64,000 nt of DNA, taken from Terracidiphilus sp. (lineage in GTDB: Bacteria; Acidobacteriota; Terriglobia; Terriglobales; Acidobacteriaceae). The notes under the pieces were generated by a model. It had not been told where the DNA came from, searched no databases, and was given only the letters and a program-made list of their open reading frames with translations. The translations under genes and the position numbers were made by a program. Each line of letters opens with the position of its first letter. Positions within the stretch are counted from its first letter, which is position 1. Of the stretch, positions 14,346-63,961 are shown one piece after another. The stretch covers positions 82,858 through 146,857 of the forward strand of contig JBEKUB010000005.1 of the NCBI GenBank assembly GCA_049515455.1. The letters run 5' to 3'.

Positions 14346-16457
14346 TCATTGGATTCGGTTCACGCGAAAAATGTGTGCCGGTTGAACCCCCGGCCGCAGC
14401 GCCACATAATTGCGGACACGCCACGTGTACTGCACCCCGTTCAGCAGGTCGTCGACAAGAAAGCTCTCATCTGCGGAACAGCCGATCGCGTCCAGATCAA
14501 GATTCGTCCAGCCGGTCTGTTCGTTGAATGAATCGAGATTCACCACAACCAGAATCGTGTTATCGAATCCAGGCGTCGCTTTCGAATAGCAAATCAACTG
14601 CGGGTTGTCGATCGAGTGAAAATGCAGCGATGCGTTCGATTGAAGCGCGCGATTCGCATGACGAATACGATTGAGCTGCGTAATGAGTGGCACGAGTGAA
14701 TCCGGCGCGTTGCGGTCGCGCTGCCGGATCTCGTATTTCTCGCTGCTGAGATACTCCTCTGACTCAATTTTGCCGGTAGGCGGCGCGGCCGGAGCATTTT
14801 CTGCAAGTTCGTACGCCGGACCATAGATGCCGTAGCTCGAACTCAGGGTCGCGGCAAGAATCAAACGATACATGAACGCCGGACGCCCGCCTTCCTGAAG
14901 AGTTTTGTGCAGTATGTCAGGCGTATTCGGCCAGAAATTCGGCTGAAAGAATTCGCTCACCGGCGGACGAGTCAGCTCTTCGAGATAGCTTTGCAACTCG
15001 ATCTTCGAGTTACGCCACGTAAAGTACGTGTACGATTGCGTGAAGCCCCGCTTGGCCAGGGCGTACATTACGTGCGGCCGCGTAAATGCTTCGGCAAGGA
15101 AAATAGTGTCAGGATAACTCGCTCGCAAGGCACCGAGGCACCACTCCCAGAAAGGCAGCGCTTTTGTGTGCGGATTGTCGACGCGAAACACGCGCACGCC
15201 CCGGTGAATCCAGAATTCGAACACTGAATACAGCTCGTCCCAGAGGGCGCGCCAGTCAGGCGATTCAAGATTCAGCGGATAAATATCCTGGTATTTCTTG
15301 GGAGGATTCTCCGCATATTGAATCGATCCGTCAGGCCGGATAACAAACCAATCTGGATGTTCTGTGACCCATGGATGATCGGGCGAACACTGAAATGCAA
15401 TGTCCAGAGCAATTTCAACACCCTGCGACTTGGCCGCGGCAACCATGTTTTCAAAATCTGCGAACGTGCCGAGTTGCGGGTGAATCGATTTGTGGCCGCC
15501 CAAATCTCCAGCAGCCTGCGCACCCAGCGCCGAGCTCGCGATGGCCGCCCTGTCGCCGATCGCCCACGGACTCCCAGGCGCATTTGGCGGAGCATAGGTC
15601 GCGTTGTTTGGTCCTTTGCGGAACGAGCGTCCTATGGGATGAATCGGCGGCAGATAAACAATGTCAAACCCCATCGCCGAGATCTCGGGCAGTTGCATTT
15701 CGACATCGCGGAATGTCCCGTGCTGGCCCGGAATCGGCGACGCAGACCGAGGAAAGAGCTCGTACCACGATGAAAATCCTGCGCGTTCCCGATTCACCCA
15801 AACCGGCAACTCGGTCTCGTATCGCGTAGCGTTTGTCAGATCGGGATAATTCCTCATCAATTGAAGAAGTTCTTCATCGCATGGGTTGTCATAGTTCGAT
15901 CGATTCTCGACCGCAAGGTTTTCGAAGCTCTGTGCTATTTCGTGCAACCGCTTCGCGTCATTCGATCGCGCCCGCCGCGCGCCTTCGTGGATGAGCGCCG
16001 CTCCCGAGCGAAGCGCAAGCGCAACATCCTGCGCGCTGAAATCAAATCTAACGTTCAGCTTCGCATCCCTACCTGACACTTTACCCGGTGCCGTGCCCGT
16101 AATTTCAGGCTCCTTTTGTGCGGCGATCCGTTTCGCCAATTCGCCGGCCCATGTGGCGAAGTGATCCACCCAACCGAGAAGAGTGAAGCGCCAGTCACCG
16201 AGCTTGTCAACAACGAACGTGCCATTCCAGACATCATTGCCCATTGCGCGCATCGGCAGAAACGACCACCGGCGGTCGTTCGAATGACGATAAAGTAACC
16301 GCGCAGCCAGGTCATCCTTGCCGTCGGCAAAGACTGCTGCCGTAACGACAACTTCATCACCCGCAACCCGGCAGACAGGATGACGGCCCGCATCAATCTG
16401 AGGATTGACGTCCTCGATGACAACGCGTCTGCGACCATTAGAGGGTTTCAATGGCAT
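14346..16457 (-). CDS. glgE: Alpha-1,4-glucan:maltose-1-phosphate maltosyltransferase
   Basis: WYELFPRS, YLPPIHPIG, GSPWAIG, YAENPPKKYQDIYP, FRVDNPHTK, AEAFT, NFWPNTPDIL; ATG 16457 preferred over 16535. Confidence 0.95.
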   Translation of the reverse strand: MPLKPSNGRRRVVIEDVNPQIDAGRHPVCRVAGDEVVVTAAVFADGKDDLAARLLYRHSNDRRWSFLPMRAMGNDVWNGTFVVDKLGDWRFTLLGWVDHFATWAGELAKRIAAQKEPEITGTAPGKVSGRDAKLNVRFDFSAQDVALALRSGAALIHEGARRARSNDAKRLHEIAQSFENLAVENRSNYDNPCDEELLQLMRNYPDLTNATRYETELPVWVNRERAGFSSWYELFPRSASPIPGQHGTFRDVEMQLPEISAMGFDIVYLPPIHPIGRSFRKGPNNATYAPPNAPGSPWAIGDRAAIASSALGAQAAGDLGGHKSIHPQLGTFADFENMVAAAKSQGVEIALDIAFQCSPDHPWVTEHPDWFVIRPDGSIQYAENPPKKYQDIYPLNLESPDWRALWDELYSVFEFWIHRGVRVFRVDNPHTKALPFWEWCLGALRASYPDTIFLAEAFTRPHVMYALAKRGFTQSYTYFTWRNSKIELQSYLEELTRPPVSEFFQPNFWPNTPDILHKTLQEGGRPAFMYRLILAATLSSSYGIYGPAYELAENAPAAPPTGKIESEEYLSSEKYEIRQRDRNAPDSLVPLITQLNRIRHANRALQSNASLHFHSIDNPQLICYSKATPGFDNTILVVVNLDSFNEQTGWTNLDLDAIGCSADESFLVDDLLNGVQYTWRVRNYVALRPGVQPAHIFRVNRIQ

Positions 16458-16903
16458 GCGGGTCCTCAATAGAGAGCACCGCTGCCACGGGATCGGTCGA
16501 AGGAAAGCCGAAGTTGGCCGCACACCGAACGCCAAGCCGAGGGGATCGCCAATTGAGCAGCAGCAACCTTAAAGATGCTCCAGAAGGGAAGCAGGATGCT
16601 CGGCCCCCAAACCGAACACTCTTAAGCACCTCACCTTTTGGGGATTTCGCGCAAAACAAATCGTTGTTATCCCGGTTGGGATGAACACGCGCAACTCAGA
16701 TTTAGGTCGTCTTCTTGCTGAATGCTGACCGTCTCTATCGTGTTATATCGGGCAAGGAGCCTCGGAATTCACGGAATCCTATTCCAACCTTGCCATCGTG
16801 CTTTCTGCAACTTACAGGATTGAAAAGGGAGAAGAAAGAACGAATCAAACCCTACTTGGCATGAAGCGAAATATGCTTTTCGCCACTCCTGGGTTGCGTC
16901 AAA

Positions 16904-18175
16904 TCATGAAAACTGACTCATATCAATGTTTAGCTCGTATTTTTCGCCGTGCTCCAGCATTTCTTCCCAGGTAACTTCGCGACCCAGGCGACCAGCCATT
17001 CGACCTAGCACCGCGCTCAAAGCGGCTTCAACGCCGGCGGCGGCCTGGTTGTGGTAGTTCCCCGAGGTAATGCTATCAATGAAGCCGCGATCTTTCTCCC
17101 GGTCGGCCTGGGCCAGATTGTCACTGAACGCTCCATTGGCTGCAAAGGAAGCTTGAGTTGTCTCGCCCCCGGTGCCTTTATCGACCCAGGTCCATGGTTT
17201 CTGGCTCACGATTCGCAATGGGCCGGAGTACAGAGCCTCTGCAAGTCCGTCCGAGCCAAAGACGCTCACCCCAACGTTGAACCAGTCGTGGGGCCCGAAC
17301 TGTGTTGATGAGAAGCTCAAGTGAACGTTTTCAGGATAAATAAATAGAACCTGGTAATTGTCCCACATATCGCCGGGATGGGTGATTACGTTTCTTCCGC
17401 CGGTAGCTATTGCCTTGATGGGATGCGACTGAAGAATCCAGTTGCAGATATCGATCACGTGAATATTCTGCTCCACGATGATATCGCCCGATAGCGCGAG
17501 ATCCCAGAGCCAACGGCGAATTCGAAGTTCGTCGGCGGATACACCCGGCAGCGGAGGATAATTAACCCCCGGAGCGTTGTAATTTGCCGCGATGCTGGCA
17601 ATCTTGCCCAGCGCGCCCTCGTGGATACGCTGAACGATCTCAACGTATGGCGGCGCGCTGCGAATCTGAAAACCGACATCGAGGCTTACACGCCCCTGTG
17701 CCCGCTTCCCAATCTCCAGAACCTGTTGCGCCTGGGCCACATCGACTCCTACCGGCTTTTCGCAGTACGCGTGCTTGCCCGCCTTGACGGCGGCGTCGAG
17801 ATGCTGAACGTGAAACCACGGCGGAGTTGAAATCTGCACGGCGTCAACGCCCTGAGACGCGGCGATTTCCTCGAAGGCCTTATAGCCGCGAAACATCATC
17901 TTGGGATCCATGCGCGCGTAGCCCAGCTTATCCGCGATCTGATCGAAATGCGCCTTACCCGCCTCCAATTTGTCGGGAAACAGATCTGCGAGCGCAACAA
18001 AGCGCGCGCTGGTGTTGTTCGCAAAGGATGTCGCAACTGCGGTTCCACGTCCACCGCAACCCAATAACGCTAGCTGCACAGCCGAGTTAGCTTCGTAACC
18101 AAATGCAGTTTGTTGCCTCAACAGCATCAGTCCTGAAACCGCGGCCGAGCCTTCTACAAATAGCCTTCTATTCAC
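16904..18175 (-). CDS. Gfo/Idh/MocA family oxidoreductase, Tat signal
   Basis: NRRLF Tat motif, LGCGGRG, AYCEKP, DIIVEQNIHVID. Confidence 0.9.
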   Translation of the reverse strand: MNRRLFVEGSAAVSGLMLLRQQTAFGYEANSAVQLALLGCGGRGTAVATSFANNTSARFVALADLFPDKLEAGKAHFDQIADKLGYARMDPKMMFRGYKAFEEIAASQGVDAVQISTPPWFHVQHLDAAVKAGKHAYCEKPVGVDVAQAQQVLEIGKRAQGRVSLDVGFQIRSAPPYVEIVQRIHEGALGKIASIAANYNAPGVNYPPLPGVSADELRIRRWLWDLALSGDIIVEQNIHVIDICNWILQSHPIKAIATGGRNVITHPGDMWDNYQVLFIYPENVHLSFSSTQFGPHDWFNVGVSVFGSDGLAEALYSGPLRIVSQKPWTWVDKGTGGETTQASFAANGAFSDNLAQADREKDRGFIDSITSGNYHNQAAAGVEAALSAVLGRMAGRLGREVTWEEMLEHGEKYELNIDMSQFS

Positions 18176-31844: not shown

Positions 31845-31869
31845 GGAAGCTCAGATCAAATTGCAGTTT

Positions 31870-32008
31870 TGAAAGGGCGCGACCTGGCACACACTGGGTC
31901 GCGTGCCGCATGCGCAACAAGACAATTGTGGGCTTTAGCTGTAAGGTTTCAACACGTTGTTTACTCTTTCAGGCGTTGTTTTGAAAGGGCACGGCTTCAG
32001 CCGCGCCG
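31870..32008. repeat. Two REP-like elements, family D
   Basis: GAAAGGGCGCGACC..GGTCGCGTGCC then GGGCTTTAG, and TTGAAAGGGCACGGCTTCAGCCGCGCC. Confidence 0.7.
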
Positions 32009-32208
32009 ATGAACGCCCCACGGTGCCTTGAAGGCCAAAACGCTTTTGAGGCTCGGGCAAGAGGAGAGCAAAGCAAGCTGTTCAGGGTTGTTTTTTGGCA
32101 TTAAAGCGAAAATCCCGCAATCTTATTCCCATCGCGGGTCGGATTGCGGGTTGAACTTTATCCTACTACTGATGTCACATCCATAAACCACTAATTCCTA
32201 TTGGTTTA

Positions 32209-32285
<77 letters not shown>

Positions 32286-45607: not shown

Positions 45608-45674
45608 TTGAAAGAGCACGGCTTCAGCCGTGCCACCACAGAGAGGGATAATCGCGGGCTTTAGCCCCTGAGGG
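45608..45674. repeat. REP-like element, family D
   Basis: TTGAAAGAGCACGGCTTCAGCCGTGCC ... GGGCTTTAGCCCCTGAGGG. Confidence 0.85.
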
Positions 45675-61696: not shown

Positions 61697-62815
61697 TTAA
61701 AACTGAATGCCTGATAGGCCCTCGTACTGCATCGCCAGCAGCAGCCGGTTGGCCAGCAGGCTGGCCCGTCCGCTCAGCGCGCGTTCAGCTGTCACCCTCG
61801 CCAAATCTGGAAGGTTATTGCTTTCAGAGAGATGCGCCAGAATCACATAGGCAGCCTGGCCGTCGTAACCCTCCTCAAGGAACGCCGCCGCAGCCTCGTT
61901 CGATAAGTGCCCCACCCTGGAAAGTACCCTTTGTTTCACCTGCCAGGGGTAGGGTCCGTCGCGCAGCATCTCTAGGTCGTGGTTCGATTCCAGCATCAAC
62001 AAGTCCACGCCCTTCAGTTGCTCCTTGACATTCGGCGGTATATATCCCAGGTCGGTCGCGTAGCCCATCCTCACCCCCTCAGCCTGGAAAACAAAACCCA
62101 CCGGGTCGGCCGCATCGTGTGGGATCGTAAACGGGCTGATTGCGATGTCGCCAATCTCAAATGGCTTTCCAGCCTCAAAGTACTCCACCGTCGGCAGCCA
62201 GGTGGGATCTTCTTTCCGCGACGGCGTCGCTGGTTGAGTATCCAACTCTGGTTCAGAGCTCGACTCCAGCTTCGGTTCTGAGCTCGAGTCCAGCCCTGGT
62301 TCAGAACTCGACTCCAGCTTTGTGTCAGGGCACGACTTTAGTCGTGCCGTAGATGCTGTTTGATCGACTCGGGCTTTAGCCCCTGCGGCATGTTCTTCGC
62401 CCAGTTCACCCACAGCCTCCACCAGATCGCTTTCGTCCGGCTCACACTCCAGACCCGCAGCATCGGTCTCCGCCTGCCGCTCCGCCGCCTGCTTCCTGCA
62501 TTGTTCCAGCCACTGCGCATAGGTCATCTGCCGCCGAGGAGTCAGCCATCGCATCCAGGCGCGATGCGTGCCCTCGGTAAAGTACACCGGAATCCCCAGC
62601 TTCCGCGCCGTCACCGCCAGCCCGTTCACGTGGTCAGAATGCTCGTGGGTAATGATGACCGCATCCAGCGTCTCCGGCTCCTCGCCGGCCAGCCGCATGC
62701 GCCGGAACAGCTCCCTGCAGCTCAGCCCGGCATCCAGAAGAATCCGCGTCCGCCCGCCGGAGATAACCGTGCAGTTGCCCTTGGAGCCCGAAGCCAGCAC
62801 TGTGAAGCGCACCAT
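61697..62815 (-). CDS. MBL-fold metallo-hydrolase (YycJ/WalJ-like) with internal insertion
   Basis: LASGSKGN, THEHSDH, HDAADP, TDLG, ESNHD, GHLSN, HLSESNN. Confidence 0.92.
   Translation of the reverse strand: MVRFTVLASGSKGNCTVISGGRTRILLDAGLSCRELFRRMRLAGEEPETLDAVIITHEHSDHVNGLAVTARKLGIPVYFTEGTHRAWMRWLTPRRQMTYAQWLEQCRKQAAERQAETDAAGLECEPDESDLVEAVGELGEEHAAGAKARVDQTASTARLKSCPDTKLESSSEPGLDSSSEPKLESSSEPELDTQPATPSRKEDPTWLPTVEYFEAGKPFEIGDIAISPFTIPHDAADPVGFVFQAEGVRMGYATDLGYIPPNVKEQLKGVDLLMLESNHDLEMLRDGPYPWQVKQRVLSRVGHLSNEAAAAFLEEGYDGQAAYVILAHLSESNNLPDLARVTAERALSGRASLLANRLLLAMQYEGLSGIQF
62250..62321. repeat. Three 24-bp tandem repeats inside the MBL CDS
   Basis: GGTTC(A/T)GA(G/A)CTCGA(C/G)TCCAGC.. x3, encoding (K/G)L(E/D)SSSEP. 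Confidence 0.9.
62319..62388. repeat. Family D element inside the MBL CDS
   Basis: GGGCACGACTTTAGTCGTGCC ... GGGCTTTAGCCCCTG, read in frame as AAGAKAR...TARLKSCPDT. Confidence 0.85.
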
Positions 62816-62855
62816 AGTTTGAGAATACAGCCAAGGGCTGTGCATATCGGGACGC

Positions 62856-63044
62856 TTTGGAAGGGCGCGGCTTTAGACGCGCCACTTGATAGGCAATAGA
62901 ATCGTGGGGCTTTAGCCCCGGAGGGGTATCCTATCGACAATTTGCCGGGTGCCCCACCCTCGCGACGCTTTTGTTTTTGTCGCTAGGGTGGGATACCACA
63001 AAACTCAACCATCGAAGCATGGAAGGCGCGGCTTTAAAACCCGC
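62856..63044. repeat. Cluster of family D, family A and degenerate D elements
   Basis: GGAAGGGCGCGGCTTTAGACGCGCC..GGGGCTTTAGCCCC (62856-62925); GGGTGCCCCACCCT..AGGGTGGGATACCAC (62947-63004); GGAAGGCGCGGCTTTA (63021). Confidence 0.75.
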
Positions 63045-63098
63045 TCCCCCTGCGGCTAGGGCATACCATTTCAAAACCTTGATCTCTTCGATTTTCCT

Positions 63099-63230
63099 CT
63101 AAACCGCATCCGGCAGATGCGTCGGAATCTCGATTGAAACCAGCGTCCCCCGCCCCGGATTGCTGACCACGCTGAACCGCATCTGGCTGCCATAGAGCAC
63201 TTCCAGCCGCTCCTGCACGTTCTTCATGCC
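63099..63230 (-). pseudogene. Orphan 3' fragment of a LytS/YehU-type sensor histidine kinase
   Basis: GMKNVQERLEVLYGSQMRFSVVSNPGRGTLVSIEIPTHLPDAV* matches the HATPase tail; upstream in-frame residues lose similarity. Below the ORF-track cutoff. Confidence 0.75.
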
Positions 63231-63331
63231 ATGCCGGCGCCAAGACCAGGAACGCAGCTTCTCATGGTGGTATCCAGGCTTATCGCACTATAGGATGAAA
63301 TGATCCCGTGCAAACACGGAAGGTGGAAGTT

Positions 63332-63961
63332 ATGAGCAAGATTTCAATTAAGGGTGTGTTGATTGGCGCGATCACCAACGAAGTTGGAGGAATGACCTTC
63401 TATGTTCTAGTATCTTTGCTTCTTATCCTGCCTGCCTCTCTGGATGGTTCTTTAGCTACCAAAGGTTGGATAGATATTCTAATGACGATGGCTTACCCCG
63501 CTTTTGCATTGCTTGGCGGATTCGTTGCAGCCCGGATTGCTAAGCGCAACGAAATGATCAATGGCGCTCTATCTTCTTTCATCGGTGTTGCGCTTTGTGT
63601 ATTAACCCTGGTCCGCGGCCAGAGCGGCAACCCGAGTTTTCAGATGGCACTTATTGTGATCTTGCCTTTGTTTGGGTTTCTGGGTGGTTTGCTGGAATTT
63701 GGTCTTTTCAGCCGGGGCAGGAAGACGAACGAAGCCGCGATCGACCTTCCTATTTCTGCCGTCGTCAGCACAGCCAACACGACCACCTTCACAACGCCCA
63801 TCACTACCGCCGTCGTTACTGGCATTGTCGATGACGAAGAGGCGTGGCTCCATTATCTCGCCCATCGAGACTCCTCATCCCGGAATCCCGGAACCACCGT
63901 CAAAGACGAATACGATCAATTTATGGCCGCCCGTGCCAAGAACCGGCCCACCGTTTCATAA
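63332..63961 (+). CDS. Hypothetical 4-TM membrane protein with Thr-rich tail
   Basis: Hydrophobic helices (GGFVAARIAKR), GGAAG upstream, A/T-rich codon usage. Confidence 0.65.
   Translation: MSKISIKGVLIGAITNEVGGMTFYVLVSLLLILPASLDGSLATKGWIDILMTMAYPAFALLGGFVAARIAKRNEMINGALSSFIGVALCVLTLVRGQSGNPSFQMALIVILPLFGFLGGLLEFGLFSRGRKTNEAAIDLPISAVVSTANTTTFTTPITTAVVTGIVDDEEAWLHYLAHRDSSSRNPGTTVKDEYDQFMAARAKNRPTVS

Follow-up and report, generated by a model that had tools for sequence, protein, structure and literature searches.

Short palindromic repeats that spread through bacterial genomes sometimes come to lie inside coding sequences. Rickettsia palindromic elements (RPEs), which are 100-150 bp long and form Rickettsia-specific sequence families, occur in frame in dozens of genes per genome, housekeeping-type genes among them, where they add fold-compatible peptides and are inherited by related species (PMC10969869). 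Repetitive extragenic palindromes (REPs) are short (20-40 bp) imperfect palindromes with covarying stems, high in copy number and mostly found downstream of coding regions, where the flanking genes are convergent or co-directional; one of their ends is marked by a conserved tetranucleotide, GTAG or CGTC, and occasional in-frame intragenic copies of 20-30 residues are known from Opitutus, Thauera, Thioalkalivibrio and others (Di Nocera et al. 2013, PMC3733652). A cognate transposase, RAYT (TnpA-REP), belongs to REP systems, and REPs often flank its gene. Intragenic copies are also described for miniature transposable elements with inverted repeats (MITEs) such as Nezha, ERIC, Correia/NEMIS and YPAL, which are small, non-autonomous, stably folding and co-transcribed, and which can form in-frame fusions (PMC10969869). 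Here we describe a 64,000-nucleotide stretch of Terracidiphilus sp. (Acidobacteriota; contig JBEKUB010000005.1, positions 82,858 to 146,857), hereafter the window, in which a copy of a dispersed repeat that we call family D lies in frame within a gene for a metallo-beta-lactamase (MBL)-fold hydrolase. An earlier note on this DNA had drawn the parallel with Rickettsia; the comparison is fitting, yet such insertions are more widespread than it implies, as the intragenic REPs of other bacteria show. We think it quite probable that a REP-like copy of family D entered the linker of this protein in a single ancestral in-frame insertion, was inherited vertically and has been maintained by selection acting on its hairpins. 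The features concerned, in window coordinates, are:

61697..62815, minus strand: host gene, 372-aa MBL-fold metallo-hydrolase (open reading frame listing, Pfam, Foldseek)
62219..62434, minus strand: DNA for the predicted disordered linker, residues 128-199 (AlphaFold2, ortholog lengths)
62245..62316, unstranded: three 24-bp tandem units, SSSEP-K/G/E-L-E/D (Tandem Repeats Finder array 62241-62337, 4.0 copies)
62321..62387, plus strand: family D element core (nhmmer match 62321-62386, E = 6e-15; translation)
62329..62348, unstranded: hairpin 1, GGCACGAC-TTTA-GTCGTGCC, 8-bp stem, codons 156-163, TARLKSCP (covariation in 5 of 8 pairs)
62349..62370, unstranded: variable inter-hairpin spacer, RVDQTAS, codons 149-156 (free evolution among orthologs)
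62371..62382, unstranded: hairpin 2, GGGC-TTTA-GCCC, 4-bp stem, codons 145-149, GAKA (covariation in 3 of 4 pairs)
62388..62399, unstranded: possible 3' extension, GCATGTTCTTCG, encoding EEH (weak information content)

The host gene occupies an uninterrupted minus-strand open reading frame (ORF), 61697-62845, with a probable start at 62815 (MVRFTVL). Pfam assigns the protein to Lactamase_B_2 (PF12706, 5.8e-28) and Lactamase_B (1.1e-14), and Foldseek, with E values as low as 3e-8 and a probability of 1.00, matches its core to MBL structures (PqqB, ElaC-like, YhfI and PhnP-family); a PDB sequence search returned no match at 1e-5. The HxHxDH motif is present as HEHSDH at residues 57-62 and is invariant in 119 sequences. 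The label "YycJ-like" given in the earlier note found no specific support, as no NCBIfam model reached its equivalog cut-off (TIGR03307, PhnP, scored 34.6 bits where 272 are required), and the protein is best described as a generic MBL-fold hydrolase. The JGI name "phosphoribosyl 1,2-cyclic phosphodiesterase" (PhnP-type) was likewise not verified. The gene is found in peat and wetland metagenomes, and its orthologs are 314-443 aa long, with 75-90% identity.

Within this frame, the palindromic element that had been proposed at 62319-62388 was borne out, with both hairpins present, and the in-frame translation proposed with it (AAGAKARVDQTASTARLKSCPDT) matched the ORF exactly. The element itself is read as AGAKARVDQTASTARLKSCPDT, residues 144-165, and its canonical orientation is on the plus strand, antisense to the hydrolase gene. 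The hairpin-1 pattern GGGCACGACTTTAGTCGTGCC, found here at 62328-62348, has five matches in the window versus 0.00 expected from shuffles; the hairpin-2 pattern GGGCTTTAGCCCC, at 62371-62383, is weaker alone (5 matches versus 1.6 expected). The C-terminal half of the MBL domain and the HEHSDH motif both stay in frame around the element. A weakly conserved stretch, GGCATGTTCTTCG (62387-62399), may also be part of it; a GGATGnTCTTC-like tail of weak information content follows a subset of the intergenic family D copies. Predicted tryptic peptides of the segment include VDQTASTAR, SCPDTK and LESSSEPGLDSSSEPK.

A gene broken at the element, be it a pseudogene, a pair of polypeptides or an assembly chimera, seems very improbable. 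Pfam does report the MBL domain as two stretches split by a 110-aa interruption, and nothing else favors a break. The frame is single and open in the window and in all orthologs, whose lengths differ by multiples of three, both halves are highly conserved with invariant catalytic motifs, and metatranscriptome contigs cover the gene on either side of the element. Contigs from 69 blocks of independent metagenome assemblies carry a call for the identical 372-aa protein, which shows the arrangement to be real and not an assembly artifact.

Family D was searched for with an nhmmer profile seeded with three full window copies and then iterated over 1.77 Mb of related DNA, comprising the window, 80 species-representative GTDB loci, 80 metagenome loci and 8 ortholog loci. 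We found 55 copies, 14 in the hydrolase gene and 41 outside it, nearly all from Terracidiphilus/Acidobacteriaceae metagenome-assembled genomes of peat and wetland. The core is ~ 66–72 nt long and consists of a flank (T(G/T)TGAAAG or TGTnTCAG), hairpin 1 (20 nt), a ~ 22-nt spacer, hairpin 2 (12 nt) and CTGAG, and each loop is a TTYA that a C-G pair closes. Across 46 aligned copies, pairing held in 94.7% of stem cells and compensatory changes were observed in 8 of 12 pairs, measures reached by 0 of 500 control shuffles. Examples of the compensatory stem variants are GAC/GTC versus GGC/GCC, GCGCG, GGATTTATCC, GGGTTTTAACCC and GGCCTTCAGGCC. Folding z-scores range from -1.5 to -2.8, and an Rfam search with the element returned no family at either the gathering or the E-value threshold.

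By our own rough ORF-based gene calls, 37 intergenic copies could be classified by context: 20 lie between convergent genes, 13 between co-directional genes and 4 between divergent genes. Like REPs, then, family D is made of short imperfect palindromes whose stems are kept across copies, and it is numerous, dispersed, mainly intergenic and located preferentially downstream of genes. The orientation of the co-directional copies (9 versus 4) was not significantly biased. Of the 41 copies outside the hydrolase, not one sits in a gene that we consider credible, and the in-frame insertion into many genes that is typical of RPEs was therefore not observed in the 1.77 Mb sampled. Apparent in-gene copies at L080, L052, L056, L021, L060 and L078 were rejected because they fall at the ends of R/A/G-rich antisense junk frames, and a copy "inside a gene" at L009 was not credited, since it rests on a probably spurious 120-aa ORF call.

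Family D is present at an identical site, in the same frame and orientation, in 14 hydrolase loci of one Terracidiphilus subclade. In a neighbor-joining tree of the conserved halves of the hydrolase, the element-bearing orthologs are confined to this subclade, where they stand among decayed or empty relatives, and the element is absent from the outgroup clades. The window's closest relative (L092, protein P0005) has kept hairpin 2 and lost the spacer and hairpin 1, the L012 copy is eroded, and L005 carries a remodeled hairpin 1, with similar peptides at that place in P0004 and P0007. The ortholog alignment that the earlier note had proposed thus gave outgroup orthologs without the element. With family D dispersed and mostly intergenic, this supports its central reading, a family D copy inserted in frame. 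An exact empty site was not recovered at the DNA level, the outgroup linkers being too divergent for base-by-base alignment. Intergenic family D copies were observed in genomes across the genus, with or without an in-gene copy, and the peptide is confined to the one subclade; together these argue against a peptide ancestral in orthologs that lack family D.

The number of insertions can be judged from the variants that the copies carry. Every in-gene copy has GTAG after hairpin 1, the TGTGTCAG flank and the GAC/GTC variant of the stem, whereas the intergenic copies of the same genomes are mostly other variants. This shared signature favors a single insertion in an ancestor, and speaks against repeated entry as well as against homogenization by other copies. 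If the linker were a hotspot that family D had entered several times, the patchy distribution on the tree would be accounted for, and three repeat families do occur in the same linker of different orthologs, with two at once in P0025, P0029 and P0067. We consider this distinctly unlikely, given that the in-gene copies have the same junctions, frame, orientation and subfamily signature, and that their spacers have diverged like neutral sites, as is expected of old orthologous copies.

The protein segment that received the element is predicted to be disordered. AlphaFold2, run with 119 sequences, models an MBL core together with a long helix at residues 99-122, followed by residues 128-199 with a predicted local distance difference test score (pLDDT) of 32-42 and no secondary structure. 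The element (residues 144-165) falls in this predicted disordered segment between the halves of the MBL core, below pLDDT 50 throughout. This is the kind of fold-compatible placement known from RPEs, and the earlier note had suggested looking for it in an AlphaFold model. Orthologs have two strongly conserved halves and, between ...ERQAE and DPTWLP, a linker that is hypervariable and measures 34-96 aa; no ortholog has a broken ORF, and the length differences are always multiples of three. Distant Acidobacteria orthologs match over 795 nt only (~ 265 aa) and, judging by this match length, appear to do without the long linker. Only one of the six reading frames of the in-gene copy is free of stop codons, and the insertion was viable because it landed in that sole open frame within a structurally unconstrained segment. 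The locus is a clean example of how an insertion survives.

The same linker hosts more than family D. Two further palindromic repeat families, intergenic elsewhere, lie in frame within it in other orthologs, one read as ENEPQVLRLAALAQDD and the other as GGRASRFPTLAP or CPILDAASSRQGWE, with one copy of the latter at window 62940-63000. The linker is a safe harbor for repeats, as shown by the three families inside it and by the proteins, P0025, P0029 and P0067, that carry two together. The window copy at 62940-63000 (GGGTGCCCCACCCTCGCGACGC...GTCGCTAGGGTGGGATACC) is intergenic, upstream of the hydrolase gene, and its family is in frame in the linkers of P0012, P0015, P0045, L013 and L134. The third of the three families, read as ENEPQVLRLAALAQDDSK, was observed in frame in the linkers of other Terracidiphilus species (L025:5499-5570, L055:10403-10470 and L119:3411-3465), with intergenic copies at L066:233-272 and L096:6647-6690.

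Beside the element, the three 24-bp tandem units match the unit at the element's end (62317-62340) at 15-16 of 24 positions, where background comparisons average 5.9 and never exceed 13. From this likeness, the array is best read as a triplicated and diverged family D 5' end with 11 nt of flank, SCPDTKLE having turned into a threefold SSSEPKLE (the repeat can also be written as LESSSEP units). Other orthologs have independent tandem repeats of the element end (PDTNQ/ADTNQ; CPDTK...CPDTK). A linker with three repeat families and hairpin-seeded tandem duplications offers a concrete route from selfish repeats to variation in linker length.

The history that we favor runs as follows. Family D is a REP-like, ~ 70-nt dispersed repeat of Terracidiphilus and related Acidobacteriaceae, and in the ancestor of the subclade one copy entered the DNA for the long, acidic, disordered linker that joins the MBL halves. 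It survived there through its open frame and the lack of structural constraint and has since been inherited vertically, with decay or deletion in several lineages, and it would be read through as a protein segment. Its hairpin-forming end has repeatedly seeded local tandem duplications that lengthened the linker, and in other lineages the same linker has independently taken up the two other palindromic repeat families. The data show the insertion and its age, a frame that was kept, a receiving segment modeled as disordered and conservation of the nucleotides, from which translation of the segment, the way it was mobilized and the cause of hairpin conservation are inferred.

Conservation of the element was observed at the nucleotide level. 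In the 12 intact in-gene copies used for a synonymous-site test, whose gene cores differ at 34% of third positions, the third position is invariant in 11 of 14 hairpin codons, compared to 60 of 274 (22%) in the gene core (binomial P for 11/14 at the core rate = 1e-5). No 14-codon window of the core has more than 7 invariant third positions, and among spacer codons only 1 of 7 is invariant at this position. Pairwise third-position differences average 0.021 in the stems and 0.217 in the loops, compared to 0.407 for the spacer and 0.336 for the core. The only variable four-fold site in hairpin 1 is a loop base (CTN), which varies across the whole family too. In L005, two compensatory double substitutions have kept 7 of 8 hairpin-1 pairs, and the peptide now reads AGTKVQAYQ. 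What is conserved therefore appears to be the hairpin as DNA or RNA, with the peptide unconstrained, which would mean that selection at the level of the nucleic acid keeps the hairpins of the family, most likely as sites that a protein recognizes, even inside coding sequence. Hairpins that stay conserved in a coding sequence where the spacer codons drift give a direct way to test REP-like elements as selected nucleic-acid structures.

These data also bear on the idea that the segment is an ancestral functional protein motif, its likeness to the intergenic repeats being secondary (chance, or repeats derived from the gene). The peptide ARLKSCPDT is indeed strongly conserved in many orthologs. 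Yet this conservation reaches synonymous positions and follows the distinction of stem and loop and not that of residues, and the remodeled L005 hairpin alters the peptide and keeps the pairing. Outgroup orthologs and the distant ~ 265-aa orthologs are without the segment, the family is numerous, intergenic and variable, and the segment is predicted to be disordered. We give the idea very little credence.

A further possibility is exaptation, in which the hairpins have become functional for this particular gene, for instance as a signal at which its mRNA is processed or transcription pauses, as an antisense terminator or as a site bound by a protein. The strong conservation of stem third positions beside a variable loop and spacer and the compensatory remodeling in L005 fit such a role, and the in-gene element persists in at least 12 species-level lineages, whereas the intergenic copy upstream at 62856 is species-specific. 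On the other side, the element has been lost or has decayed repeatedly inside the same subclade, and these losses make it dispensable. Persistence is not special to the in-gene copy either. An intergenic copy downstream of a conserved 153-aa gene beside the hydrolase (L007:11760-11825 and L096:4803-4868) is common to species of different subclades, and both versions share the unusual GGATTTATCC stem; its presence at an orthologous site shows that intergenic copies can also persist long. Neither a strand signal (8 versus 8 stem mismatches) nor an Rfam family was found for the hairpins. We regard exaptation as possible and rather doubtful.

Only slightly more confidence can be placed in a wider proposal, which we put forward tentatively. 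The hairpins would be a functional nucleic-acid element held under purifying selection through the radiation of the Terracidiphilus subclade, and the peptide would be a by-product tolerated by the disordered linker. If so, family D, with its two identical C-TTYA-G loops, would be a protein-recognized structural motif of Acidobacteriaceae genomes or transcripts and not plain selfish DNA, and the hydrolase gene would be a natural experiment on nucleic-acid versus coding constraint.

Several observations weigh against an ancestral insertion of a REP-like repeat that is translated and kept for its hairpins. The synonymous-site test rests on only 12 partly related orthologs. Template-switch correction in DNA palindromes can yield compensatory changes without selection, so covariation alone is no proof of function; the low substitution at synonymous stem positions does require purifying selection on the nucleotide sequence. 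The strand test, which compared G-T with A-C stem mismatches, came out even at the 8 versus 8 given above, and so gave no sign of a strand or of an RNA or DNA form. One insertion followed by many losses is parsimonious but not proven, as the neighbor-joining tree uses ~ 260 residues and has no support values. That the segment is translated, which would add about 22–27 residues to the protein, is deduced from the maintained reading frame, with no peptide detected. RNA contigs (Logan) break at the repeat, and read-through of the element was not directly seen. No target-site duplication accompanies the copies, flanking direct repeats averaging 1.79 nt versus 2.01 +/- 0.17 nt when shuffled. The GTAG or CGTC tag that defines REPs is lacking from the family consensus, and no Y1 (REP-associated tyrosine, RAYT) transposase or other mobilizing enzyme was identified among the genes beside the L052 cluster, the sole place scanned.

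Set beside the described systems, family D is REP-like, although it differs from REPs in several respects. It has their palindromy, copy number and distribution, including the intergenic contexts (PMC3733652), and an in-frame copy of similar size. Where REPs carry their tag, family D has G-(C/T/A)-A-(A/G) after hairpin 1 and AAAG or TCAG in the 5' flank, GTAG being found only in the in-gene subfamily. Its unit is moreover a constant pairing of two unlike hairpins, which follow each other in direct order and have the same loop motif, and not a single REP or an inverted dimer (REPIN); the lack of a RAYT gene, noted above, reflects a very partial search. With MITEs it shares its small size, non-autonomy, stable folding, co-transcription with adjacent genes and capacity for in-frame fusion. 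It fails their description, as it lacks target-site duplications and, in place of terminal inverted repeats of 15-30 bp, has only CAGGG...CCCTG (5-6 bp), which occurs in the TGTnTCAG subfamily and overlaps both hairpins; its size is at the lower MITE limit. Nor is it an RPE, by sequence or by frequency in genes, although like an RPE it has entered a housekeeping-type gene in frame, at a place that the fold allows, and has passed to related species. It is ~ 70 nt long, unrelated in sequence and, in the 1.77 Mb sampled, in frame in one gene only, and its single open frame of six gives no sign of built-in coding capacity.

In-frame insertion of REP- or RPE-type repeats is a known event in several phyla, and here it is real and well supported in a new one. 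The earlier note's suggestion that it is new for Acidobacteria held up, in that a literature search, which did not cover all journals, found no such elements or in-frame copies there. In-frame "decoration" of proteins by palindromic repeats is thereby extended to Acidobacteriota, a phylum that is dominant in soil and has received little study.

The four other family D sites that the earlier note had listed in the window proved to be real and, by our rough gene calls, intergenic (31866-31945, 31980-32040, 45608-45672 and 62856-62922):

31866..32040, plus strand: two adjacent diverged family D copies, head to tail, ~ 170 nt past the 3' end of a minus-strand tRNA gene (32212-32285)
45608..45672, plus strand: full intergenic copy between convergent genes (profile and hairpin patterns)
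62856..62922, plus strand: full intergenic copy just upstream of the hydrolase start (profile match)

In the head-to-tail pair, the 31866-31945 copy is diverged, with a 12-nt insertion in the loop of hairpin 1, and the 31980-32040 copy has the variant GGCCTTGAAGGCC as its hairpin 2.

Elsewhere in the sampled DNA, the densest cluster gathers nine copies in one 21-kb locus (L052:5493-7207 and L052:15099-15519), and three of these stand directly downstream of a minus-strand gene for an IS110-family transposase (15585-16952). The genes beside this cluster are a GTP cyclohydrolase II, a GNAT, a histidine kinase and the IS110 transposase. IS110-family elements target REPs and REP-like palindromes, and their presence nearby is one more likeness of family D to REPs.

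Hairpin 1 has matches in dozens of metatranscriptome contigs that come from other loci (runs X25-X28 on window 62317-62356), with a summed depth of ~ 3200 in X28. The abundance of these matches indicates that many family D copies are transcribed in peat communities. A duplicated-profile protein search with the element peptide returned only domain-less hypothetical ORFs of 31-77 aa and missed hydrolase orthologs with a perfect match, so this search is apparently blind to insertions in long proteins. Hundreds of such "hypothetical proteins" in public metagenomes (P0121-P0240 among them), from Terracidiphilus where a name is given, are family D copies in translation. Most likely they result from spurious gene calling, for which the family would account in peat metagenomes.

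The spacer upstream of the hydrolase gene holds other sequences of note. A stretch at 63018-63056, GGAAGGCGCGGCTTTAAAACCCGCTCCCCCTGCGGC, resembles a broken family D hairpin 1, and if it is counted, the 250-bp spacer 62846-63098 contains three repeat elements. Next to it, a 42-aa minus-strand ORF (MKNVQERLEVLYGSQMRFSVVSNPGRGTLVSIEIP..., 63099-63227) looks like the C-terminal end of the ATPase domain of a histidine kinase and may be a relic, and a Pfam search with this ORF gave no hit. An intact kinase gene is located further upstream, past a gene for a DUF3792-like membrane protein (63308-63961).

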